A stretch of DNA of 62,612 bases, counting the filler, from Collodictyon triciliatum (taxonomy: Eukaryota), in assembly GCA_043381765.1 (NCBI GenBank). It is 16 parts of 16 records of this genome, joined end to end, with 100 filler letters (N's around TTAATTAATTAA, not from the genome) between each part and the next. Parts side by side here need not be neighbours in the genome. Positions count along the whole stretch, not along the records: positions 20,167 to 24,097 come from JBHJMP010006695.1; 15 more parts are not named here. One strand, 5' to 3'. Shown here piece after piece: positions 3,932 to 60,422 of this stretch. Within the stretch, counting starts at the first letter, position 1. The number at the start of each line of letters is the position of its first letter. Below the pieces are notes generated by a model. That model was not told the DNA's origin, searched no databases, and saw only the letters and a list, made by a program, of their open reading frames with translations. The translations under genes and the position numbers were made by a program.

Positions 3932-4031
3932 NNNNNNNNNNNNNNNNNNNNNNNNNNNNNNNNNNNNNNNNNNNNTTAATTAATTAANNNNNNNNNNNNN
4001 NNNNNNNNNNNNNNNNNNNNNNNNNNNNNNN
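3932..4031. other. Artificial contig-joining spacer (44N-TTAATTAATTAA-44N); 15 copies in the window
   Basis: Identical six-frame-stop 12-mer at 3976, 8014, 12049, 16074, 20111, 24142, 28170, 32198, 36223, 40248, 44273, 48296, 52319, 56340 and 60365, separating ~3.92-3.94 kb contigs. The N run at 61939-62030 lacks the 12-mer and looks like an ordinary scaffold gap. Confidence 0.98.
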
Positions 4032-7911: not shown

Positions 7912-8162
7912 GATAATGATAATGATAATGATAATGATAATGATAATGATAATGATAATGATAATGATANNNNNNNNNNNNNNNNNNNNNNNNNNNNNNN
8001 NNNNNNNNNNNNNTTAATTAATTAANNNNNNNNNNNNNNNNNNNNNNNNNNNNNNNNNNNNNNNNNNNNATGTATGTATGTATGTATGTATGTATGTATG
8101 TATGTATGTATGTATGTATGTATGTATGTATGTATGTATGTATGTATGTATGTATGTATGTA
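7871..8162. repeat. Contig-end microsatellites (ATAATG)n and (TATG)n on either side of a spacer
   Basis: (ATAATG)n at 7871-7969 and (TATG)n at 8070-8162. Confidence 0.95.
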
Positions 8163-14448: not shown

Positions 14449-15831
14449 TTACCAGCGTGGAAGCTCGTTTCCTTTGATGAGGGTGCGTGTTGCGCCATCC
14501 TTGTTGACAGTAAGCAGTCGACATACACCTCCAGATGAGCCGTCTCGGTGGATTGCGAGCGAAATGGCTATGTGTGTGGGCATATTCATTTCATTCAACT
14601 CAATCGTTCAAAATGAAAATAATGTTGCCCCTGGTATAACTTCACAATATTTCTTTTTTTTTTCCCCAGCCTCTTTTGCTGGTGTGATTGAAAAAGGAGT
14701 GAAAGTGTGACTGGTTAGTACCTGTCGCAACAAACTTTTCGCATTCCTCGCGAGTAAAGTCAGGTCGATAGTTGGAATCCAAAAAACCAAAGATGTAGGT
14801 AGAGCCAGAACCTAGATAGTCACCAGGTTTGATTTATTTTTTTCTTGGAGAATTTTCTTTTGAAATATAACCCATTATATATAAGTTCTTATCTCTATTT
14901 GTTTATTATTATTTTTTAAAAAAGGTTGTCTTTCTATCTAAACAAATACAAAAATAAGATACATAGTTTTGCTCCCTTTTTTTTTTAACCGCAGTTAAAA
15001 AGATAATTATGTATATAAAGGAAGAAAATAAAGGGGGACGAAAAAGAAAAGAAGTGAGTTTTTTTTTTTAAAAAAAAAAATTAAATTATAATTGGCCACA
15101 CCTCCCGCTGCCAAGGGCTGTTCGCAAACGGCCCCACCAAGAGAGATGCTGTAGACCGACGCGCCGTGGCGAGCATCATAGCCAGCCACGATCAATCCAG
15201 CTGTCAGGTGGTTCTTGTTGTGATATGCCATCATGCGGAACAGATTCGCAGCAACCTTGACCTCAGGCTCCTCTCCAAGCTCCAGTGAGTGCAACTTGAC
15301 GTAGTGGCGCACATAGTCGGTCAGAACTTGTGTGTCCGCGGCAGAGCCAGAGCGGCAAACAAAAATATTGTCTGCAACGCTGGTGATCTTGTCCGACGCA
15401 CGATTCACAACATAGGAACCTAAAGTTTATGTGTATGGAACATTGTAAAATTACATTTTGTTGTTATGTAATAATTGTAATTGGATACCAAGTCGAAATA
15501 AATTATTTTTTTTTTGAAAATACATGTAATGGAGAATGCTATACGCAGTATTATTGATCTAACAATCGTATTACCAGAGGATGTGCGTGAATCTGCCCCG
15601 AGAACGACTCCATCCTTATACTTTGCAGCAATGATGGTTGTCTAGACCAAATATATATCTTTCAGATTTAACAGAGGTCTCAACAACAGTTAGAATAAAG
15701 CAACCATATGCAACAAAAAAAAATATATATAAAAAAACAGCAACAGCAAAGAGTCCATTTGGTTTCTTGGTCAAGTATAAAGGTAAACTCACGCCCATGC
15801 TGACATCTGCTCTGTAAAACATATCTTTCAT
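14449..15831 (-). CDS. PSMB6: 20S proteasome subunit beta-1 (PSMB6/Pre3)
   Basis: Propeptide ..[73 protein letters not shown]; stop TAA at 14449-14451. An in-frame acceptor at ~15853 suggests a possible further upstream exon. Confidence 0.96.
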
Positions 15832-16129: not shown

Positions 16130-19100
16130 ATTTTTTTAATTGTGAATACGAGAACAGGTCATCCACTCTACCTGCGCATTGTGCTGGATGAGCTTCGTGT
16201 GTTTGGAGTGTACGAAAGAGTAGACACCGAGCTTCATGAAATGCTGGAGACAAAGGGAGTTGTTAATTTGTTCGACCTTGTGATGACTCGCTGGGAAAAG
16301 AAATATGGTTTTGTAATACATATGAAATAGTAGTTTAAAATATGATTTTTATTGATTTATGTGTTATTTTAGGAAACATTGCCAGTCTGTCCATCAGTGT
16401 TCTTTATGTGTCGCGCATTGGTCTTGATGAAAATGAGCTGGATAAATACATGGAGCATCGACTTAACCTAATTCCTATGCAAATGAAACGGATGCGAGAT
16501 AACCTTGTAATCTGGTATATCGTGTCTTGTCATATGATTTATACGTATCACTTTTGATAAATTGTATTTTTTATTTTAGGAAATCATTTCTTTTTGTCTT
16601 GCTGGATTCGCTCTTTGTGAGGAACGGGAGGTGATATGGGTATTCATATATTTCTTAATAGTCGTCATTGCTAATCACAATATCTTTATTAGATACGCAT
16701 TCTCTCACCAGCTGCTGGCACAATCCATCAAAGAGCGATACTTTAAGGATGAAGCATACACAAAAAGGGAAGCACGTGAATACGGATTGTGGCTGCTGGG
16801 TGAATACGGCTCTGACACTGAAGACAAGAGTGTTATTGCCGAAATATGTTACAATCTGATGATTTCGAGCGAATATGATAAACTGGTGGACTTTATGAAG
16901 AGTGAAAAGGTTGAATGGTGGATTTTATTTTTTTATTACTGTGACATGTGTTGTAATGTAGTCTTTAGGTTGTTGTGAGCATGCTGGATGGCAACTATCG
17001 CTTCGAGTTTTATGAATGCTGGAGAGAGCTGAATAAGAACGGTTATGACCACAAAGCTATCTATCGTGAGTTGGCCAAGGTGATAAAACTCAATTACATA
17101 TATCAATAATGAATTTATTTTAATGGGTATGCACAACAGCAATTGAATCCTGCTGGCTCTGAGTTGGTTAAGTACTTTCAAGAAATTCAAGAGAATGCCT
17201 TTTTGATTCCGATTCTTGAGCACCGCATTTCTGTTGAGACGGATGAGGGTTTGGTCAGTTGATTTGGATTTTTGTGACAGTGTTGCTAACTTTGGTTTAT
17301 CTATATTAGGTTCAAATAGCAAAAATCTGAATTTTCTAGGGTTGGTTTATCGTCAACTCGGAAAGTATGATTTATTTGATTATGTATTATATTTATCATT
17401 TATTGACTTATTATTTAATAGTAATGAAAAAGCACTGGAGTACTATCACAAATCATTGGAAATCCGACTGAAAGTGTTTGGAGAAGTGCATACTTATGTT
17501 GCCAATTCATATATGGGAATTGGGCTTGTTTATAATAACCTTGGAAAGTATCTTTTATTTGATTACGTATTTTTAATATTTATCCCTTCATTAACTTATT
17601 ATTTAATAGACATGATAAAGCTCTGGAATACTATCACAAATCATTGGAAATTCAACTGAAAGTGTTTGGAGAAGTTCACCCTGATGTCGCCGCTTCATAC
17701 AATAATATTGGGCTTGTTCATCGTCAACTTGGAAAGTATCTTCTATTTAATTACGTATTTTTAATGTTTATTCTTTCAGTAACTTATTATTTAATAGACA
17801 TGACAAAGCCCTAGAGTACTATCACAAATCATTGGAAATTAAACTGAAAGTATATGGAGAAGTACACCCTGATGTTGCCGAATCATATAATAATATAGGG
17901 GTCGTCTATGGGAAACTTGGAAAGTATATTTTATTATTGTATATTTATGTTTATCCTTCATTAACTTATCGTTTAATAGGAATGACAAAGCCCTGGAGTA
18001 CTACCACAAATCATTGGAAATTCAACTGAAAGTGTTTGGAGAAGTCCACCCTGATGTTGCCACTTCATATAATAATATTGGAGTGGTTTACGAGAAGCTC
18101 GGAAAGTATATTTTATTTGATCATGTATTTATGTTCATCCCTTCATTAACATATTATTTAATAGGAATGACAAAGCCCTGGAGTACTACCACAAATCATT
18201 GGAAATTCAACTGAAGGTGTTTGGAGAAGTCCACCGTGATGTTGCCGCTTCATATAATAATATTGGGATGGTTTACTATAACCTCGGAAAGTATATTTTA
18301 TTTGATCATGTGTTTATGTTCATCCCTTCATTAACATATTATTTAATAGGAATGATAAAGCCCTGGAGTACCACCACAAATCATTGGAAATCCGACAGAA
18401 AGTGTTTGGAGAAGTCCACCCTGATGTTGCCACTTCATATAATAATATTGGAGTGGTTTACTATAACCTCGGAAAGTATATTTTATTTGATCATGTATTT
18501 ATGTTCATCCCTTCATTAACATATTATTTAATAGGAATGACAAGGTTCTGGAGTACCATCACAAATCATTGGAAATTCAACTGAAGGTGTTTGGAGAAGT
18601 CCACCCTGATGTTGCGATGTCATACTACAATATTGGAAGCGTTTACAATAACCTCGGAAAGTATCTTTTAATTTGATTTTGTTTATGTTTATCTTTTCAT
18701 TAACTTATTATTTAATAGATATGACAAGGCTCTGGAATTACACCACAAATCATTGGAAATCCGACTAAAAGTGTTTGGAGAAATCCACCCCAATGTTGCC
18801 GCTTCATACAATAATATTGGGATAGTTTACAAGAAACTTGGAAAGTATCTTTTATTAGATAATGTTATGTTTATCCTTCATTAACTTATTATTTAACAGG
18901 AATGACAAAGCTCTGGAATACTACCACAAAGACCTTGAAATTACTCTGAAAGTATATGGAGAGGTCCACCCTGAAGTTGCCACTTCATATAATAATATTG
19001 GAATGGTTTACGATAACCTTGGAAAGTATCTTTTATTTGATTATCTGGTAGTGTTTATCCTTTCATTAACTGATCGTTTAATAGGTATGACAAAGCTCTG

Positions 19101-19340: not shown

Positions 19341-20279
19341 GTGGCTCGTCTGTTACCCACCCCATCTAAACAACCCATTCATCCACCCATACACCACCAC
19401 CCTTTCCACAAAAACAAGTACAAGTGAGTACTATCTCGATGACCGCCAAACTGAACGAGTGCAGACGACTGCTAGCTTGTTCGCAGGGGCTGGATGAAAA
19501 GAATAAAAAAAAAAAAAACCTAACCTTTCCAGCAGTTGCCGATAAACGTGACACGTCTCCTGTTTGTTTGATAATCGACCTTGAGTATGTGTCACAGGCT
19601 AAAAGGATGATTATGTGTTGGTTATCATTGTGCTACTGAGGTGTTTGCTTTTATTTGATTCATTCATTTTATATTTTTTTCGCTTGGTCAAGTGTCGCAA
19701 TGTCAGCTTCATGGACATAATCTTTTCTTTTTCTTCTTGCGCCCATGATGATGGCAGGCTGTAACGATACATGCACTCGCTTTGTGTGCCTTTATTCTGT
19801 CTTATATTATATTCATCGACTTACTTGAAGGCTCTTAATATCCTTGACCGACTGCGCTGTTGTCTGTTGGATTTGCATCTGCAGTTGTTTGATTTTTCGC
19901 CGAAATGTTTTGTTGTTTGTTTTGTATAAGTTTATTGGCTCCACAGTGCGATTAGTCTCGGTTTTTTCTTTGGCATTCACCTGCTCACTACATTTTTGTT
20001 TACTTTTTCTCTTTTCTTCTGTTTTCTTCTGTTTTCTTCTGTTTTTTTCTTCTCTTTTTTTTTTTTNNNNNNNNNNNNNNNNNNNNNNNNNNNNNNNNNN
20101 NNNNNNNNNNTTAATTAATTAANNNNNNNNNNNNNNNNNNNNNNNNNNNNNNNNNNNNNNNNNNNNTGTTTTTTTGTTTTTTTGTTTTTGTTTTTGTTTT
20201 TGTTTTTGTTTTTGTTTTTGTTTTTGTTTTTGTTTTTGTTTTTGTTTACTCGCAGAGCATGGACCTTTCTGTCATTTAG

Positions 20280-21648
20280 GTCAACGAGGAATTCGGTAGA
20301 CTCGATGAACAAGTCATTTCTTCATTTTCCAAGTTTCAAACAGAACTTGATGGCATCGAAAAGCATATTCTGGAGCAAGTGAAAAGAAAAATTAATTTTT
20401 TTTAACTTTCCTTATCTATGTAATATATTATAGTTGAAGCTAATCAACCTCCTAGATGTGAGTTTTACCAGAAAAATGAACATATCACAATTATAGGGTG
20501 TTTTGCTCATGCATGTCTCTTTTTTTTAGACGAATACATCTCGCCTTACCATTGTCAAGAGTATGTCTATGAACGAGACCAATGCCATGGGGAGAAACAA
20601 ACACCTTCGAGTGAGCATCGATCGATATCACCGCCGTCTAGATTTGTCCAAAGGAGAAACCCACGCTCCATCCCTCTATAATGTCATGACCATGCGCCTA
20701 TTGGTTGACCTCTCCGCCTCCCAAGTTACTTCCATCCATGACAGAATATTTCACTTTGTGATTCCTCAGTTTTTCCAGTTTCCATTGTCAGAATCCTTCT
20801 GGAAAACTGTGTTTGTTTCAAACTCCTCATACCCAATCACACGCTCACTTTCGACGTTAGAGGCATATAACATTATTCCTGTTGGTGACCGTCTTGACTG
20901 GCCCTTTGGTATTGCTGTTCATCCATGTACTGGGCTTCTATACGTAGCAGACTATGGAAATCACCGCGTCGCTGTTCTCAATGAGGATGGTACCTTTTTG
21001 CGTGCTATTTCAAAGTTTGCCAACGGACAGTCGTTCCAAAATCCAAATGGAATTGCTTTCAGTAAAGATGGAAACTTTATGGTGGTGACCGACCACTGTG
21101 CCAATAAAGTCCACCTAATCAACGGGGAAACGGAAGAGATAATTGTTTCCATTGGTAAACAAGGATCTGATGAAGGTCATTTTAACGAGCCGCGCTTCGT
21201 CGTTTTTGATAATGACGATTACTTTTACGTTACAGACCTTAGAAACAGCCGTATCCAAAAATTCAATACCAAAGGTGCTGTTGTCCAAGTATTCAGCGAC
21301 CAATCTACTGAGAAATATTTGGTCAGTCCCATGGGCATAATGCTGAATGATGCGAATGAGCTTATGATCATCCCGCCTGGAGAAACTTCAGTACGTGTAT
21401 ACACTCTGGAGGGGAAATTCCTCCGCTCCATCCCAGTAAGGAAGACGACACAGTACACCTTTATAGCTCGAGGTCCAAATGGTGGCTTTGTCATCTCTGA
21501 CTACACTGAAGACCAGGTTAATTTCTACGAAGCAGATGGGACCCACATCAAAAGTGTGAGTGCACCTGGGGCGGCCGGCTGTGTCTTCGACAAGTCGGGT
21601 CGCTTCTTTGTGCTTGACAGGAAGAGCCATCAGCTCTTTGAATTCTAA
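20280..21648 (+). CDS. Coiled-coil + NHL-repeat beta-propeller protein (TRIM-NHL-like C-terminus, 5' truncated)
   Basis: Exon 20280-20378 (VNEEFGRLDEQV...ILEQ) splices in phase 0 to 20530-21648, which has NHL repeats LDWPFGIAVHP..LYVADYGNHRV, FQNPNGIAF and FNEPRFVVFD..YVTDLRNSRIQKF. Confidence 0.88.
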
Positions 21649-22261
21649 CTGGAAATGCATGCCGCATCGATGCTATCACGATGATTATTTTATCATCCTG
21701 ATCTATCCTCTCAAAAGAAAAGAAAGCGAGAATAAACGACAGTGAAATCAAGAAGAGAAATCGGAAGTATGATATCTATATATACTTAATATTAAGTATA
21801 TATAGATATCAGAAGTAAATATTTATTATTATTTTCTATTAAAAAAAAAAAAAAGGAACAAAGAAATAACGAGTTCGAAATTCCCAGATACAGGCGGCGC
21901 GGCAGTAGACCCTTCTTCCTCCCTTTTCCAGATGTAGACATCATTCCCAATCCATCTTGCTGCATTGTACGCCTCTTTTCGCTCTGGGCTTCATTTCCAA
22001 TTTTTTTTCTTCGGATTTTTGTCATTGATTCGTGGTGAATCGAGTAGAAAAACAAGAGCCGAAAGTCTACAGAAAAGAGCGTCCACGCCAAAGCGGCACC
22101 GGCAAACACTCTTCTTCGTACAAACAAAATCAGAGAAAAAAGAAGAGGAAGTATTAAAGTTGTGCAACTGCGAAGTGAATCGTTCTCTCTTGTTCATATA
22201 ATGTAAACAACTTGCTTTTTTTTTTGCGTCTGATACCCGTCGGCAGGGTTGTGTTATGTTA

Positions 22262-22366
<105 letters not shown>

Positions 22367-22708
22367 AGGAGCGAATGACTATAAAAGAAGAAAAAGGCAC
22401 ACTCGATCAAAAAGGGGTCTACAACACGTGTTTCTTTTCCTTTTCTTTTCCTTTCCTTTTCTTTTCTTTTCTTTTCCTTTTCTAATCTTTTCTTTTTCTT
22501 TTCTTTTTCTTTTCTTTTTCTTTTCTTTTTCTTTTCTTTTTCTTTTCTTTTTCTTTTCTTTTTATTTTTCTTTTTCTTTTCTTTCTTTCCTTTCCTTTCC
22601 TTTCCTTTCCTTAGTTATCTCTTCCTATTTCATTTTTTTCATTTAATCAGATATATATATTCTTGACCTTGTTGGTCTAGTCAACTCTGTGCCTTTCAGC
22701 TCTTTGGA

Positions 22709-23888
22709 ATGGCCTTCACCAAGTGGTTTGCTACGATGTGCCTTGCAATCGCTGTATTGGCTGTCGATCTGGCTGTGTTTGCCTGTGAAAGCAACGCAAA
22801 CTGTGAACCAGGCATTTGTTTTGTGAACGAGTCAAACAACGTTTCTCCCGGGGTTGCTGCCTGCTTTTGCCCCAATGGATACACTGGCTCGGACTGCAAG
22901 ATGATTGTGGAGGAAGTTAATGCCATGGATAGAAGGATCGAAGGCCTTCGTGAATCTGTAAATGTATCATGGGTACTTGTTTGCTCCTTTATGATTCTGT
23001 GTAAGTTAATTCCTCGACCTTGTATTCCACAGCAGTATATCTTTGCACTTAATTCTTTCTTTTTCAAACTTTTTTCTTAGGGTAACTCTTATTTTTCACC
23101 TCCCCCCCCCCCCCCTCTTTTTTTTTTTTTTTTTTTTTTTAAATGCATGTGTAGTTATGCAAGCTGGCTTTGGCATGCTCGAAGCTGGGTCCGTTCGTGC
23201 TAAAAACACGAAAAACATATTGATGAAGGTATATATTTGCCTGAATTAAAACAGAATTGTTTAAGTCTATATTCACCCCCTTTTGTTCTTCGCATAGAAT
23301 ATTCTTGATACCGCCGTCGCTAGTGTGTGTTTCTGGGGCTTTGGCTATGGGTTTGGGTTTGGGTATCGAACAGAAGATTCTGCAAACGGATTTATCGGAG
23401 ATGACGGATTTTTTCTCGCAAAAACCGATGAGTATACTCATTGGATGATTTCATGGGCATTTGCTTGCGTTTCGGTCACTATTGTGAGTGGCAGCCTGGC
23501 CGAAAGATGTAATCTAAAGGCATATGCAATTTTCAGTGCCTCAATGGCTTCTATCATCTATCCTGTCTGCGCTCACTGTACGTTCTTTACTTTCATAAAA
23601 ATTTATTGTTAGTTTAATTTGTAATATTTTAATTACAATAAATGCTTGTTACAGACAACTACTTATAGCCCTTTTTACTTTTTTTTTTGTTTTTGTTTTT
23701 GTTTTTGTTTTTGTTTTTGTTTTTGTTTTTGTTTTATCCTAATATAATTCAAGAGTTAACGGAAAAAAATACCACTTCAAAAAATAGGGGGGTGGTCTGA
23801 GCGTGGATGGGTGAGTCCTTTCAGAGAGGATCGATTCTCGGGAACCAACGGTTATATTGACTTTGCCGGCAGCGGCATCGTCCATGTG
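22709..23888 (+). CDS. Ammonium transporter (Amt family) with signal peptide and N-terminal EGF-like domain (3' truncated)
   Basis: Exons 22709-23000, 23155-23228, 23298-23577 and 23788-23888 give [71 protein letters not shown] and [10 protein letters not shown]. Confidence 0.95.
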
Positions 23889-24050
23889 GTTAGTAATAGA
23901 AGTTTGTTTGTCTTATGAAAGATTGATGCCGGGAAGTGGGTCACGTGAAGTAACAGAGTTGTTTTGGATAAATCTTATTTTTTCTGCATTTTCATTTATT
24001 GGTTAATTTTTATAATTACTTTTCTTTTCTTTTTTCTTTTTTCTTTTTTT

Positions 24051-24097
<47 letters not shown>

Positions 24098-24197
24098 NNN
24101 NNNNNNNNNNNNNNNNNNNNNNNNNNNNNNNNNNNNNNNNNTTAATTAATTAANNNNNNNNNNNNNNNNNNNNNNNNNNNNNNNNNNNNNNNNNNNN

Positions 24198-29727: not shown

Positions 29728-31632
29728 AAAATTCATCATCACCACCACCATTTTCATTTTTTCTTTTATTGTCATCATCTTCAAGATTAGCATCATGTAT
29801 CTAACGAGATTCTGGTTAGATGGAAGAGCTTCCTCTGGAAATCACAGTGCTCACGAATCTGAGACAACTGTTCATCGAATACTCAGGCAAAATCCACATC
29901 AAGAGAGCACCTCATGGCCTCACAAATCTACCGTGCTGGAATAACTATGCAAACAAAGATTACAAACATATCCGGGCCTTGCAGCTTCATGATCTTGTAA
30001 GTAACACAGCCTATTTGACATTAGGAATAGTTCAAACTACTCCGTTTCTACCAAGACTAACAAACGTGCACAAACCACCCATAGACCTCGAGCAATCTTC
30101 ACAAGACATCACACAAACAATCTGTAGTCAATCCTCTTCGAGCTTCCTCGCCAGCTGTCAATGCCCTACTTAGCGCGTATTCTGGATTCAAACCTCTTCG
30201 AGCCTCCACTCCAGCTTCTTTCTACACAAATAACACATCCGAGTTTGCCTCATTGCGTAGCTCCTCACCAACTGTCAATACCCAGCTGAGAGCATCCGTA
30301 GTTGCCACTTCCCTAGCCTCTTCACCAGCTGTCAGTTCCCCGCTAAGCGAATCTACAGTTAGCTTTACAAGCACCTCCTCACCAGCTGCTAATACTCAGC
30401 TGAGAGCATCCGTAGTTGCCTCTTCAAAAGTCTCCTCACCAACACTCAGTACACAGCAAAGTATATCTACAGTTGCCACTTCATTCGCCACCCCGTCGAC
30501 TGTAAACACTGCAGCAAGCATGGACAGTCAATCAACTTTCCAAACACATTTATCTCCAGACCAACTCGACACTGACAGTGAACCAGTAACTGGCGACTTT
30601 GCAGATGTAATGGATGTTAATTTTTCTGCACACAAAATACTCGGCAAAGGTGGGTTTGGCACAGCGTACAAAGTGAAGCTCCAAAAGGGCACTGTCGCTG
30701 TCAAAGTAATCAACACCGACGCCAAGCCCGGCACTACTGATTACGATGAATTGACGCGTGAGGCGAAGTTGATGGTCAATCTCGACCATACTAACATCAT
30801 AAAACTCTATGCCTACGGTTGCAAGAACCTCAAGGTCTTCTACGTCATGGAATATGCAAACGGCAACAGCATATGGAACCTCATCAAGGCAAAAGGAGCA
30901 CTGCCTTTCGCCAAATATATTCAGTACACTATCCACATCAACGCTGGTTTGAAATACATTCACAGTCGCAGCCCGCCTATAGAGCATCGTGACTTGAAGC
31001 CTGAGAACGTCCTGCTATGTGACGGTGTAGCTAAAATATGCGACTTTGGAATCTCTACTGCTCGCGAAACTGTCTCTCGTTGCACCGACCTACAAGGTAC
31101 GTTCCATTACATCGCACCAGAATATTTCGATGGAAAAGGGTATGGATATTTGAGTGACATGTACACGTTCGGCCTTGTCATCTGGGCCATGCTCTCTGGG
31201 CAGCGACCGTACGAAGGACTGACACTGTACCAGACATTTGCTAAGAAAGGAAGAGGCGAGCTTCCCACAATCCCACCTGTGACTTCCGCCAAACTCGCTG
31301 CCATTCTTAATCAGTGCTGGAGCTTCGAAGCGCGTAGCCGACCGTCTGCAAGTGATCTGGAGCCGAAACTGGCCGACATAAAAGCGAACCCAGGCGTTCC
31401 CGTTGGGGAAATAGGCAAACCAGTCAGGGATATGGACAGCGCCGAGCTGGTCGCATATCTGAAAGCTAAGAATATCAATCAAGCCTTTATATACGTAATA
31501 AGCGAGCACGAAGCTAATGGTCAAGACTTTTTGGAAATGGATGAAGCTGCAATCATATCCGCTCCTTTTTATTTGGCAAAATCGCACGCAAAAATAGTAC
31601 TTAAACTCATCGAGGACGCCAAGCGAACATAG
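29165..31632 (+). CDS. MG-start LRR - Ser/Thr-rich linker - TKL-like protein kinase - SAM protein (exons 29165-29557, 29820-29996, 30085-31632)
   Basis: MGNTAST start; LRRs LxxLxLxxNxLSSLP; kinase motifs GKGGFG, VAVK, HRDLKPEN, DFG, GTFHYIAPE, CWSFEARSRPS; SAM-like tail MDSAELVAYLKA..ISEHEANGQDFLEM. Phase-0 GT-AG junctions keep the frame. Confidence 0.92.
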
Positions 31633-49282: not shown

Positions 49283-52166
49283 CTAGTGGCGGTTGGTGCG
49301 ACGCAGCTGCTGCACGCCCTCCCCGATTCTGGCCCAATCAATCTGTATCTCGGCGCCCGACTCCGGAGGCTGAATGAACCCGCAGCGAATCAGATATTGG
49401 AAGTAGACAAAGAGCAGGCTGGGGACCGGGTCGGAGGCCGCATCGTCCGGATGCGTCGAGGCAGTGACAAAAGGCGGCGTTTTCGGGCTGTGCCCACCAT
49501 CAGGGCGAGATTCAGATTCAGGGCGAGACTCAGACTCAGACGCTGACTTCGGCTGCGGCTCCGGTGCTGTCACGGATGCAAAGACACGAAGCAGGTTCGA
49601 GCGGAGATAGACGGGGTTTCTGCCCAAGGGCCACGCGTCGGAGAAGTGCGCAAGAACTGGGGCCAAGGCGTTGTCCGCATGGGGCTCGGCCGCGGCGGCT
49701 ATGAGGCGGGCCCTCCAGTCTGTGTAGGAGCAGGCCTCGAGGGCGTAGCCGAAGGAGCGGAGCGCGTCGTAGAGGGCGTTGTGGGGGAGGGGGGCCGGGC
49801 TGACGTGGTGGTAGACGCGGCACAGGGCGGCCGGGATGCGGGTGAGGGCGGCCACATACCCGGCCACGCGGTCGACCGGGGTCATGTCGAAGGCTGCGGC
49901 GGCCGGCATCTGCGGGGCGGCGTGCAGCTGGACGCAGCCTTTGAGGAGGCGGCACAGGAAGTCGTCTGTGTTCCACGCGCCGGTGGCGGCGGCGCCCGTC
50001 ACAAAGCCCGGCCGGTGCACGCAGACAGGCAGGCCCGCAGACCCGGCGTGCAGCACCATCCGCTCAGAAACCCATTTTGTCCGGGGGTATCCTCCGCGCA
50101 CACCCTTTGGCGCGCCCAGCGCGTCCCACTCGGCCACGGCGGGGCGGCCTGCGTGCGCCTGCGAGTCCAGCACGCTGGTGGTGGAGATGTGGTGGAAGGC
50201 CTTTGTGCGGGCCGCTCCGCCCTGGACAGCCAGGCGCAGGGCCTCCAGCGTGCCCGTGACGTTGGCTCCCTTCAGGCGGCCGTATGGCAGCAGCCAGTGC
50301 ACAAACGCCCCGTTGTGCACAATCACGTCCGTCTCCTCCGCAACCCGTGAGTACGTGGGCCCGTCCAGCCCCAGCATCTTCTCCTCCAGGTCTCCGACGC
50401 ATGCCACAATCCGCTCGCGGTATGCCTCCCGCCACACTCCGCACGTCTTCATGCCCCGCTCGATTCTCTCCATCCCTTCCTCGTGGCTTCGGGCTCGCAC
50501 GTGGCAGTACATCTTGGTGGGAGAGCCCTCGAAAGACGCGCCGTGCTGCTCCAGCAGTGCAGCCACAAGGAATGTCCCGAGGAATCCGGTGGCCCCCGTG
50601 ACAAAGATGCCTCTGGGTCGCGTCCACCGTTCGATATCTGCGGCGGCGTACTCTGGGACTTGAATCTCGCGCTCCTCCTGAGGCTCAGAGCCTTTCCCTG
50701 CAATGCTGGCTGGTAGGACAAAGTCTTCCGGAAGTCTGGCTTCCTCCTCCATGTCCAAATCCTCTTCTGAATCGTAGCCATCCTCGTTACCGGACATGCC
50801 CTCGCCCGTGGTTGCTGGGTTGTTTTCTGTCCCCGTCCCACCAGTGCTCTTGGCGTATGCATCGATGGCTTTGCCTAGTTGCTTAATGGTCGGATTCTCT
50901 AGTATCATTCGCATCGGGAAGCTCTGTCCAAACTCAGTTCTCAGGCGAATGTTCATTCTCGTTGCTAAGATACTGTGGCCGCCAAGGTCGAAAAAGTTGT
51001 CATCAACAGAGGTCGGGGTTCGTTCCAGAAGCTCAGCCCAGATCTTTAGGAGTCTTCCCTCTGTAGGGTTGACAAGATGCAGGAGGCTCTCCGCAGATTC
51101 ATTGGACTCTGGTTGTGATGGATTCTGCGCACTTGTTGGGGGAGGAAGTGCTGCGCGGTTAATTTTTCCATTAGGTGTGAGCGGCATGGCCTGTATAATC
51201 ACCACAGCGGCAGGCACCATGTAGGTAGGAAGCTTGGCTTTGAGGAATTCGCGCAGCTCTACAGAAAGTACTGTCGGGTTGATGTCGCCTTTGATGCGCT
51301 CTCCTTTCGAGTCGAATTCTGTCGGTACAACATAGCTCACCAACTTTTTATCGCCCTGCTTGTCGGTGTAAACAACCGTAACATTCTCTTTGACAGAGAG
51401 ATGCTTACTGAGATGGGCATTTACTTCACCCAATTCAATGCGAAATCCTCGAATTTTAACCTGAGTGTTTCAAAGATAACGTATTGAACAAAATCCCAGA
51501 TATATACATATAACAACTGTGTAGATACGGGAAGATAGGAGCATACACATGGGGTTAAATGAGAAGTGAATCAACTCCTCTGTAAATGCACATATCAGGA
51601 ATGTGTGTTTAATTATCAATTACTGTTGGTTTGTATATATATGTAAGTGAATAGAGACCTGGTCATCCGCACGGCCTATGCATTCAACGTTTCCATCAGG
51701 CATGTATCTACCCAAATCTCCTGTCTTGTACATGCGGTCGCCGGTGTCATCAGATTTGAACGGGTTGACAAAGAATCGCTCATTAGTTTGCTCTTGAAGT
51801 CCGATATATCCTTTGGCAAGATGGGGGCTTCTCACTGAATGTTATAAAGTTTAATTGATGAACAGCAAACATACGCAGCGGAACTTCAATTTGTCTTTCT
51901 TCATGGCGTTCACTATTATTGTTATTATTATCATTATTTTCCTAAAGCTCGTATTAAAAAAAAATTCAAGGGTGAGTTAAAATATTACTGAAAATCTCTG
52001 CTGTTTCACCGATACCAGATAATTGGCCGGCAGCGTTAATGACAAGAAGCTCGGCATCTCTCATTCCTCGGCCACAGGGAACCACTTCTTTCATCGCATC
52101 ATATCTCTCAGGGGTAAAATCAACTTCATAAAATCCAACAGCTCTTTGTGTCTCTGTGGAGCCGTA
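49283..52166 (-). CDS. LYS2: L-2-aminoadipate reductase, NRPS-like A-T-R enzyme (5' truncated; exons 52166-51989, 51834-51659, 51460-49283)
   Basis: Lys2-typical [49 protein letters not shown], carrier motif [11 protein letters not shown], reductase motifs [45 protein letters not shown]. Confidence 0.9.
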
Positions 52167-52776: not shown

Positions 52777-55700
52777 CTTGTTGTTTGATAGGTCGAGGCT
52801 CTCCATAGCTGTCAGACGGAGTAAGCACTCAGGAACTGTTGTGAGCTAAAAAAAATTTTTAAATCAGCAGTTTTTGATGACATCAGTTTCCTAAGAGGTG
52901 TCACTCGTGAAAGTTGTTACGACAACATTTCCCTATTCATTCATTTCTGTTTTTTTTAAACTAACATGGTTTCTAGCCAGGCAGAGCTTCTTGAGGTTAG
53001 ACAAAAGTGTTATCGATTCAGGCAGAGTCGATATCTAAAAAATAAATAAATGAAACATATCGCCTTCGACATTACACATGAATAAGAAAAACATGTTGGA
53101 AAACGGACTCTGCACCATGAACGGATAAGTCGAAAGTTATGATACTCCATTTTTTTTAAACACCTTGTTGAGGGATAGGTCAATTGATTGGAAATGTCTC
53201 CAAGTCTCCATCAGTGCGGAGCCAAGAGGTAATCGACGCCCAGCCCAAATAAACTCATACAAATCGAGAGTGTTGATGGAGGCTGAGAAGCTTATCCACA
53301 TAGAGTCGAATTTTGCTGTGTTGCTCATGGTTGGCAGGTGAATAATACCTGTTGGTGCTCTCTTTATATTGATGTTCTTGCAACTTTCAATTTGAAGTCG
53401 GCTTAGTTTTTTCAAACAAAGAACCCCATTTGAAAAACACTCAATCTAAATGTATGCTTATGATTAAAAAATAAAAATAAAAATAAAAATAAAAATAAAA
53501 ATAAAAATAAAAATAAAAATAAAAATAAAAATAAAAATAAAAATAAAAATAAAAATAAAAATAAAAATAAAAATAAAAATAATATTAATATCAATAGTTA
53601 TAGTAATAGAAATAGTAATAATAATAACAATTGAAGATTGCAATAGATTTATCTATCTAGAATTATCTCACAACTTTACCGGATTCTCAAAGACGTGCAG
53701 CATCGTGAGGTTTGTGAGCATGTATAGTTCATCTGGCAGGGTAGTAATCATATTATGGCTCACATCAAGAGACACGATGTTTGTAAGTAAAGATATAATC
53801 TCGGGCAGGTCACTGACTTCATTTTTGCAGACGTTCAGGCTTGAAAGGTTTTTCAATTCAGAGATGGTGTGGGGAATGTGCGAGATTCTGTTGCTCCCAA
53901 TATTTAGCTCAGTGATTTTTTTCAAGTGTCCGATTTGTTCGGGCAAGGAGGTTATTTTGTTGAAATTTGCGTCAAAATGCTCGAGATTTGTCAAGGATGA
54001 TATGTCCAGAGGAAGCTCACTCAGAAAATTCTGTGATATGACGAAACTCTTCAGATCAGCAAATCTTGGATGGTAAGGCGGAAAGTAAGGAATCGCATTT
54101 TTATGAACATTAATAGATTCCAGAGATTGAAAGTCAAATATCCATCTAGGGATTTCAGAAATCTAATATTGGTGTGGTCGGTTTGTGATGAGGAAAACTG
54201 TTAAAATTGACTTTTTGTTTCCATGTTTATTTATACCTACGTTCAACTCATAGGATACATTATTTTTCATTTTTCTAGCGAATCATTATTTTTATTTTCC
54301 GTGATAAATTTGAGAATATCTTGATTAGGAAATGAATTTTCCACATTCACTAAACAAACCTCATTTTTTGAATAGTCCCAGGTTCTACACACATCCGGAA
54401 ACATTGCAAGTTCATCGGGCACATTAGGCAGTGAAAACCCAGATATTTTGATTGTTCGACTTTTTGCACTAAAGTATGTTACAAGTATCCGAATCTTTTG
54501 GGAAAAATTATTGTATGAAAGATTCAGCGCCTCGATGTTTGTCATGTGTCGCATGTCTGGTAATTCTGATATCTATGGCATGTGATTATATCTTAAGAAT
54601 GGCCCCTCTTTTCGAACCACTTTTTTTTTTAAAAAAAAGGTGAAAAGGTATTCTAGAATGGTAATTTTATCATTCTTTCTAATATACGTACATAGCCAAA
54701 AAGAAAAAAGAATTTAAAAATGAGCGTAGTCACCTTATTTCCGGAAAAATCAAGAGATTTCAACCAGGGCATGCGAAGCAGGCAATGTGGAATTTCGACG
54801 AACTGTGCCAAAAATGATTACAGTTTAGACTAGGCAAATTGCATCTTTCTTGTCGCTTGGCGGACGATAAACACTCAAGTTTTTTTTTTACTTTGAATCG
54901 AATAAAGGAAAAAGTTTTATTTAAAAAAGGACAAATTGTCAAAAAGTGGAAAAAGTAATAGATGCCGAAACATCGGGCATGGTGATTACATTATTGTGAT
55001 TAAAACACAATTTTTCCATCATACTCAGAGATGTCATTTCTTCTGGTAAAGTGGATATCTAAATATTAAACAGTTAGGCTTCAAACAGGAGTCAGATTTA
55101 TCACGTACCGATGGTATGCTTTTCCATCACTTCAATTTACCATATTAAATGAGGCGTCTAGCGAGATCAACCGGCTCCATTTTTCTTGGTCGATGATTAT
55201 ATGCTCGATTTTTTGGTTTGCTATAACTTTCTCATAGAGCTCCACAGTTCCAGGGGACTCAACGAAAGATAGTATGGTTCTCACAACGATTTGATTTTCC
55301 TTCCAGCATGGTAATAAACTCAATCCAACTGGAGCTCTCATTACCGACAACATATCTTTCATACCAATGCAAACGTATTTAAGCTTTGTGAGCGCTGTGA
55401 TGCCCTCAGGGAAATGATTGATCTAAGGGAAGTTACATAATGTTAGGGTCAAAAATGCGCATCAGTATTTACAATTCATTGGTTTTCGTTCATTTTTGAA
55501 TGAATCCACAGAGTTATTTGGGGTTAAATACAAGTATTTTTCGGGTGCAGAGACAAACCAAGTTCCCTTCGATACAAAGCCTCTCAATGTTCCGCATTGC
55601 AGATATCTCATTGGGGAGCATTGATAGTTTATTGACAAACATATTAAACTCCACCAGTCTAGTGAGTAAGGAGATCCATTCTGGCAGCATGCTTAGGTGG

Positions 55701-60320: not shown

Positions 60321-60422
60321 NNNNNNNNNNNNNNNNNNNNNNNNNNNNNNNNNNNNNNNNNNNNTTAATTAATTAANNNNNNNNNNNNNNNNNNNNNNNN
60401 NNNNNNNNNNNNNNNNNNNNAA

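Follow-up and report, generated by a model that had tools for sequence, protein, structure and literature searches.

The universal channels for ammonium are the proteins of the Amt/Mep/Rh family. As far as is known they are regulated from the cytoplasm, i.e. via GlnK, via phosphorylation of the C-terminus or via fused kinases and cyclases. Amt proteins have an outward-facing N-terminus, and the pre-protein of E. coli AmtB, for instance, carries a cleavable signal peptide and has its N-terminus outside. In the case of the plant transporter AtAMT1;1, the structural report describes a TM1 that extends outside the membrane and by this extension takes part in trimer contacts, as well as an N-terminal "hook" with a C3-C24 disulfide that is needed for oligomer stability and for transport and that renders the protein sensitive to redox conditions (PMC13745463). 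In plants, a small disulfide-bonded outer element at the N-terminus can, according to recent structures, control the stability and activity of the trimer. The structural report on Mep2 describes an N-terminus that is 20-25 residues longer, is glycosylated at N4, builds a vestibule and contacts ECL5 of the neighbouring monomer. It also states that growth on ammonium was unimpaired after deletion of residues 2-27, so that N-terminal extensions can be dispensable (PMC4852598). The signalling by Mep2 depends on its cytoplasmic C-terminal region.

The locus described here lies in a window of 62,612 nucleotides (the whole stretch of DNA that was analysed, artificial joiners included) from Collodictyon triciliatum (assembly GCA_043381765.1). 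The gene is with high confidence identified as an AMT1-like ammonium transporter, and as a transcribed one. The complete reading that we prefer, namely an AMT1-like Amt gene with an extracellular, EGF-like, disulfide-stabilised structural cap, has in our judgement about an even chance of being correct, the role as a structural cap being a best guess only.

Like the plant AMT1 proteins (AtAMT1;1, LeAMT1;1), the window protein appears to combine an N1/N2-type body with an extension of TM1 and a disulfide-stabilised N-terminal element (here predicted), and it is to the hook of plant AMT1 that we would most liken the function of this element. In contrast, the plant proteins have a single disulfide within some 25 residues, without a leader or a recognisable domain, whereas the window protein is predicted to have a leader, a six-Cys EGF-like module (probably with three disulfides) and a longer stalk. 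What is new here, judged from the sequence, is a full EGF-like domain with a leader of its own at the place where plant AMT1 has a disulfide hook. With Mep2 the protein would share a longer extracellular N-terminus, which in Mep2 is N-glycosylated, makes the outer domain larger and touches a neighbouring monomer (PMC4852598), and which has a predicted sequon before TM1 here. Unlike the window protein, Mep2 has neither a Cys knot nor a leader, and its cluster is without N1/N2 (PMC11152129). The sensor Amts Ks-Amt5 and Sd-Amt1 are the best structural matches (to the model of an orthologue, see below) and have N1/N2 in common with the window protein, and sensor Amts and tandem-Amt fusions alike show Amt modules joined to other domains. 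Nevertheless, the fusions of sensor Amts are C-terminal and cytoplasmic (histidine kinase, GGDEF), and those in the relatives found here are C-terminal as well (cyclase, kinase, cNMP-binding, PP2C, C2, RGS, Kelch), whereas the fusion in the window protein is N-terminal, presumably extracytosolic, and without an enzymatic module. The precursors of EGF ligands (Spitz/LIN-3, neuregulin) likewise consist of a signal peptide, a single EGF, a juxtamembrane segment and a TM, but they are single-pass proteins that are released by proteolysis and act on EGFR; the E-values that connect them with the module are modest (1e-4 to 1e-3). The claim of homology is limited to an EGF-like module. AmtB, finally, is an Amt made with an N-terminal leader too, but it has no domain between the leader and TM1.

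Architecture of the first exon

An orthologue of the gene was found in the transcriptome of Diphylleia rotans, to which the protist that carries the window gene is related (P0004 in our numbering; 506 aa, complete ORF, EukProt), by a word-based search with exon 3. Its layout is identical in order, i.e. leader, EGF, linker and Amt, and the module is present in all three isoforms. Residues identical between the window protein and P0004 number 5/22 (leader), 14/32 (EGF part), 4/23 (linker) and 128/163 (Amt part), and all six Cys are invariant.

Positions 22709-22999 of the window translate without a stop into 97 residues, in a single exon that ends at 23000, in phase 1, with a GTAAGT donor. The exon contains the leader (M1-A25), the six-Cys module (C26-C63), the linker (K64-V86) and the start of TM1 (S87-L97). 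Translation of 22709-23000 thus confirms the single-exon series of leader, EGF-like module, linker and Amt TM1 given in the preliminary description, and the fusion is, as stated there, not an artefact of a splicing model, since its parts lie in one exon that is joined to the Amt body in cDNA (23000|23155). The start codon and the hydrophobic leader occupy 22709..22783 (+). The ATG at 22709 is the first one downstream of an in-frame stop, and a reading by hand of the 21 loose upstream letters of an RNA contig that covers this region (X6, see below) gives an in-frame TAA as well; the start codon is sound. By eye, the leader has a Lys (K5) followed by a hydrophobic stretch (W6-A25), and V-F-A|C fits the -3/-1 rule; in P0004, the maximum Kyte-Doolittle value of the leader is 2.07. 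The leader may be either a cleavable signal peptide (with V-F-A|C as the site predicted by this heuristic) or an uncleaved anchor, and the same topology would be expected from both.

The six-Cys module (22784..22897, +; C26, C32, C37, C52, C54 and C63) is delineated by pattern, profile and conservation. Its spacing is C26-x5-C32-x4-C37-x14-C52-x-C54-x8-C63, and the loop between C3 and C4 contains two N-x-S sequons. The features by which an EGF module is recognised, i.e. the number of Cys, their spacing and the CxC...G-aromatic-x-G...C end, are present in the window copy as well as in P0004. When the window is translated in all six frames (125,220 codons), the motif CxC..G[FYW]xG..C turns up once, namely in the module itself, and a looser six-Cys pattern matches elsewhere in these six frames only the translations of microsatellites; a chance origin of the module therefore seems unlikely. 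Compared to a profile made of the two modules (window and P0004), 29 sequences in the PDB matched at E<=1, all of which contain EGF by name, the best being Spitz/LIN-3 (1.3e-4), neuregulin (6e-4) and Notch (4e-3). At the level of Pfam, the module of P0004 lies above the cut-off of EGF (PF00008; 23.8 versus 21.5 bits), whereas the window copy lies below the cut-offs of both EGF (13.5 versus 21.5 bits) and EGF_2 (PF07974; 15.9 versus 22.1 bits). AF2 modelling of exon 1 (on a 4-row alignment with two distinct sequences) gave a pLDDT of 51.8 and a hairpin formed by residues 36-39 and 50-53, and in P0004, whose AF2 model has a mean pLDDT of 91.1, residues 23-55 have a pLDDT below 50, the alignment being shallow there with two distinct sequences. 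At such values the EGF fold, a two-stranded beta-sheet with three disulfides, is putative in both proteins. The EGF domain claimed earlier thus holds with respect to the six-Cys signature, the PDB profile matches and the passing score of P0004, and falls short with respect to the score of the window copy. We consequently use the label "EGF-like" for a module that is well supported by sequence, and do not treat the window copy as a certified Pfam member.

The juxtamembrane linker (K64-V86; 22898..22966, +) is helix-prone, as seen in the translation and in the model of P0004. Its hydrophobic residues (I66, V70, M73, I77, L80, V84) are by eye spaced 4-3-4-3-4, and the preliminary description had spoken of a short coiled coil. 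AF2, however, predicts for P0004 a single unbroken helix (residues 61-101, pLDDT 93-98) that runs through the linker into TM1, whereas the match to the Amt family in Pfam has residue 79 as its first. The better reading of the linker is therefore that TM1 is prolonged outwards, reaching roughly 18-23 residues beyond the membrane. What remains of the earlier claim is the helix-prone segment with its regular spacing; the linker is poorly conserved between the two proteins and one of the heptad positions is a Thr in P0004. A complex prediction with three copies of residues 23-101 of P0004 scored 0.09, compared to a mark of 0.42, and is uninformative either way. Directly before TM1, both proteins have an N-x-S sequon (N85 in the window protein, N76 in P0004), which is consistent with exposure of this segment outside the cytosol.

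Transporter body and transcripts

The Amt part starts within exon 1 with the first 11 residues of TM1 (S87-L97) plus one nucleotide of the next codon (22967..23000, +), and it continues with the remainder of TM1 and a loop in exon 2 (23155..23228, +), the region of TM2-TM4 in exon 3 (23298..23577, +) and exon 4 (23788..23888, +; ...W-GWSERGW...), which has a GTTAGT donor at its end and is followed by an exon that lies outside the window. The gene's contig stops in a poly-T run at 24097, which explains the missing later exons; later Amt parts were looked for within the window and none were found past exon 4. The exon borders are supported by a cDNA contig of 1541 nt (X1) that is 99+% identical to the window and has the joints 23000|23155, 23228|23298 and 23577|23788; for exon 2, joints are seen in a metatranscriptome (X2) as well. 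In X2 there is also a joint of depth 2 (22972|23155), whose donor precedes the main one by 28 nt. As the frame would be shifted by it, this joint is treated as a rare mis-splice or as a variant of a relative. Small word shares in three further runs (X4, X5 and X7) were not counted as evidence.

Exon 3 is 75% identical to P0004 and on its own matches Pfam Ammonium_transp (PF00909) with an E-value of 6.2e-18 (65.1 bits, cut-off 23.2). For the complete P0004 the match to this family covers profile positions 2-399 (1.6e-118), and its AF2 model has the whole fold of 11 TM helices. Exons 1-4 together, i.e. the first part of the gene, splice into 249 codons without a stop. Conserved site residues of the first half of the protein are present across exons 3-4 (AHW-GW and the Asp and first His of the DFAGSxxVH type), the second His, the Phe gate and the Ser falling outside the window. 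The roles of the Trp of the outer site and of the Asp and first His of DFAGSxxVH are known from work on AmtB. Past exon 4, X1 runs on for another 978 nt, the first letters of which (30 shown) were read by hand as VGGISGLVGAH, as expected for an Amt. This length agrees with a P0004-sized ORF plus about 180 nt and thus leaves room for at most some 60 extra C-terminal residues. By every test that is open to a partial sequence, the window protein is an Amt.

The gene could be suspected of being an artefact of chimeric assembly, a fragment of a pseudogene or, in its Cys-rich part, a spacer that arose by chance, because the window is a chain of short contigs, the gene is cut at 24097 and the window copy of the module is under the Pfam cut-off. 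However, EGF and TM1 lie in one exon of one contig, the spliced cDNA is 99+% identical, the 249 codons are free of stops, there is an orthologous complete ORF, and the EGF-type motif is unique in the 125,220 codons. This explanation is thereby largely refuted, and we regard it as very improbable.

The RNA runs were available as assembled contigs, and true RNA starts cannot be read from these. The first position covered by X1 is 22920, which lies past the EGF part and directly after a 24-nt tag that looks like a template-switch oligo, and there is no depth upstream. In another run (X3) the same tag abuts position 22810, and a further X3 contig spans 22844-22937. A lake metatranscriptome (X6) contains a contig of a close relative, with five differences, that covers 22679-22888 and so includes the start codon, the 5' UTR before it, the leader and the greater part of the module. 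The Cys-rich part is thus transcribed, as the X3 and X6 contigs cover it; among the contigs examined, none that stems from the organism of the window runs all the way from the ATG into the Amt body. Transcripts that start downstream of the Cys-rich segment would, by the preliminary description, refute it: X1 is of that kind, yet X3 and X6 do cover the segment. The start of X1, right after the tag and without upstream depth, could also mean that the main product has no EGF part and starts internally near 22920, where the first in-frame ATG encodes M73, and that the long form is an isoform made in small amounts or under certain conditions. This product would be an ordinary Amt with a short N-terminus. 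M73 precedes TM1 by 14 residues, and the N-termini of many relatives are that short (median 31.5 aa, see below). Against this, X1 and X3 have different 5' ends (22920 and 22810), as truncated cDNAs would, X3 covers 22810-22937 and X6 reaches up to and includes the ATG, and the module occurs in every Diphylleia isoform. Moreover, the six Cys are kept in a module of 44% identity between flanks of 17-23%, which argues that the module is translated. We consider a main product without EGF fairly unlikely.

Relatives and the role of the N-terminal head

P0004 was compared exhaustively, by phmmer, with 1.84 billion representatives. This yielded 22,232 matches at E<=0.001, of which the best 150 were examined. 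Neither of two Cys patterns, both of which do match the window protein and P0004, was found in these best 150 of the 22,232, nor did the same 150 contain a match to a Pfam EGF family (89 at E<=0.01, 22 at E<=0.001 and 39 at E<=0.01). Long N-termini as such are not rare: among the best 150, 111 have a recognisable TM1, and 35 of these have an N-terminal extension of at least 45 aa, the median being 31.5 aa. Some of the extensions have hydrophobic leaders, many relatives being without any, and there are extensions that are rich in Cys (P0138, P0139, P0146, P0151 and P0167) and ones with helix-prone segments before TM1 (P0115, P0118, P0185 and P0214). The closest single-domain representative, P0117 (402 aa, 55% identical to P0004), starts inside TM1 after a non-homologous head of 13 residues; it is probably a gene model that misses its first exon, in which a further N-terminal module might be hidden.

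Word-based protein searches with exon 1 (against longer proteins) and with residues 1-100 of P0004 returned nothing beyond P0004, which is weak evidence of rarity, and the ESM Atlas gave no usable match to the same 100 residues. In a metagenome scan with an alignment (A1), none of 262 pattern matches was confirmed; a scan with exon 3 gave two uninformative loci, the first a 38%-identical Amt whose longest ATG-initiated ORF starts inside the Amt body (L001) and the second a match of 17 residues (L002). In the literature, as judged by titles and the starts of abstracts, a full-text search found no description of an EGF-Amt fusion, and one on signal peptides gave unrelated papers only; a survey mentions in its text N-terminally fused Amt modules that it does not name there (PMC11152129). 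A common and already described architecture would have counted against the preliminary description; this one is absent from the best 150 of the 22,232 relatives and from the literature in so far as titles and abstract starts reveal it. The layout appears to be rare but conserved, and is represented so far by two sequences and a partial environmental relative in one protist lineage.

At their other end the relatives are far from uniform. C-terminal fusions are frequent among the best 150 of the 22,232 (C2, PP2C and RGS domains), and the top scorers are tandem-Amt proteins of 1,000-2,800 aa (1,400-2,800 aa for the fused ones) with cyclase, kinase, cNMP-binding, ion-channel and Kelch domains. Judged by the relatives found, protist Amts would thus be unusually modular at both ends. 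The tandem-Amt proteins comprise P0102-P0125, P0143, P0164, P0173 and P0250, many of them fused to a guanylate or adenylate cyclase, to a kinase or to a cNMP-binding or ion-channel domain, and by their appearance they are candidates for ammonium sensing in protist signalling.

According to the preliminary description, the EGF module turns the protein into an ammonium transceptor that is regulated by a ligand, by contact or by cleavage, i.e. a partner is bound or the ectodomain is shed, with a change of transport or signalling as the result. In favour of this, the order of signal peptide, single EGF, short stalk and TM is that of membrane-tethered EGF ligands, with Spitz/LIN-3 and neuregulin as the best matches. 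In addition, the Amt body carries the pattern QX6EX15NX2D[F/T]X54-60TX2[S/T], which was matched as a regular expression at residues 100-186 of the window protein and 91-177 of P0004 and was published as the N1/N2 "ammonium receptor" signature (PMC11152129); among the best 150 of the 22,232 relatives it occurs in 10. The same text, however, also lists the signature for plain transporters, namely AtAMT1;1-3 (PMC11152129). A similar ambiguity holds for the structure: in a Foldseek search with the model of P0004 the sensor Amts come first (Ks-Amt5 and Sd-Amt1, followed by Af-Amt1 and AmtB, with TM-scores to the target of 0.89-0.94), but their margin over AmtB and Af-Amt1 is negligible. The highest-scoring relatives being tandem-Amt giants with cyclase, kinase or cNMP-binding domains, the clade would seem to be often wired to signalling, whereas a Pfam scan of P0004 gave EGF and Amt as its only domains, without a cytoplasmic transducer, the protein ending 15 residues after the Amt match, and the window's cDNA leaves little room for such a domain. 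EGF-like modules are, furthermore, most often structural, and we know of no binding partner, cleavage site or receptor for an EGF-Amt. Taken together, we hold a transceptor to be unlikely. In a more specific form, the EGF-like head would be a sensory or signalling ectodomain, in which the binding of a soluble or surface partner (prey, mate or matrix) gates the N1/N2-type ammonium site via the rigid extension of TM1, or which is shed like a tethered ligand. We see this as quite unlikely; if true, it would make the protein the first Amt that is controlled from outside by a protein domain, and in the case of shedding an ammonium transporter would double as the carrier of an extracellular signal.

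The leader and the module could also serve the sorting or folding of an Amt of the endomembranes, e.g. of the food or contractile vacuole of this phagotrophic cell, with the module facing the lumen in a protective or anchoring role. The leader and the sequons imply passage through the secretory pathway, and disulfide knots resist proteases, which counts in favour of this possibility. Dictyostelium Amts are reported as localised (PMC2653498). Many relatives, on the other hand, reach membranes without a leader, and an endomembrane role appears rather unlikely to us.

The structural cap is favoured because of the precedents of the AtAMT1;1 hook and the N-terminus of Mep2. For a capped Amt of this kind, the leader would carry the N-terminus across the membrane, in agreement with the outward-facing N-terminus of Amt proteins, so that the EGF-like module and the N-x-S sequon before TM1 would be exposed to the exterior or to a lumen. 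As a rigid helix, TM1 would reach about 18-23 residues past the membrane and bear the disulfide knot at its tip, and a trimer would thus carry three capped stalks on its outer face. The cap may stabilise the trimer and/or shape the outer vestibule, transport through the pore being otherwise ordinary. A recognisable disulfide-knot domain on a stalk that is predicted to be a rigid extension of TM1 would then be a natural test of the importance of the outer face. If the cap is merely structural, the gene would represent a lineage-specific variant and a tidy annotation.

Other sequences in the window

Contigs of about 3.93 kb were strung together artificially to form the window, by means of 15 identical joiners (N44-TTAATTAATTAA-N44) with a spacing of about 3.93 kb (3932-4031, 7970-8069, ... 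60321-60420), one of which (24098..24197) follows directly past the end of the Amt contig. The GC content per 2 kb varies from 0.22 to 0.56 across the window; given this spread and the joiners, adjoining pieces are not genomic neighbours and might even stem from different organisms. The Amt gene's contig corresponds to 20167-24097 (JBHJMP010006695.1), and its true genomic context is confined to that piece. Its sole true neighbour is an open frame of 372 codons (20530-21648, +) with four NHL repeats (Pfam 5.2e-22), which stops about 1 kb before the start codon of the Amt gene, the interval containing long (TTA)n and (CTTTT)n microsatellites.

On other contigs, Pfam-type domains were recognised in several frames: TPR_12 repeats (17207-17659, +), a proteasome beta-subunit exon (15007-15426, -), leucine-rich repeats (53668-54162, -) and a protein kinase preceded by a Ser/Thr-rich region (30085-31632, +). 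An open frame at 49283-51469 (-), which is free of introns, has a GC content of about 0.5 and runs off its contig, encodes AMP-binding_C, PP-binding and NAD_binding_4 domains and is, by this combination, the predicted tail of a carboxylate-reductase or an NRPS-like enzyme.
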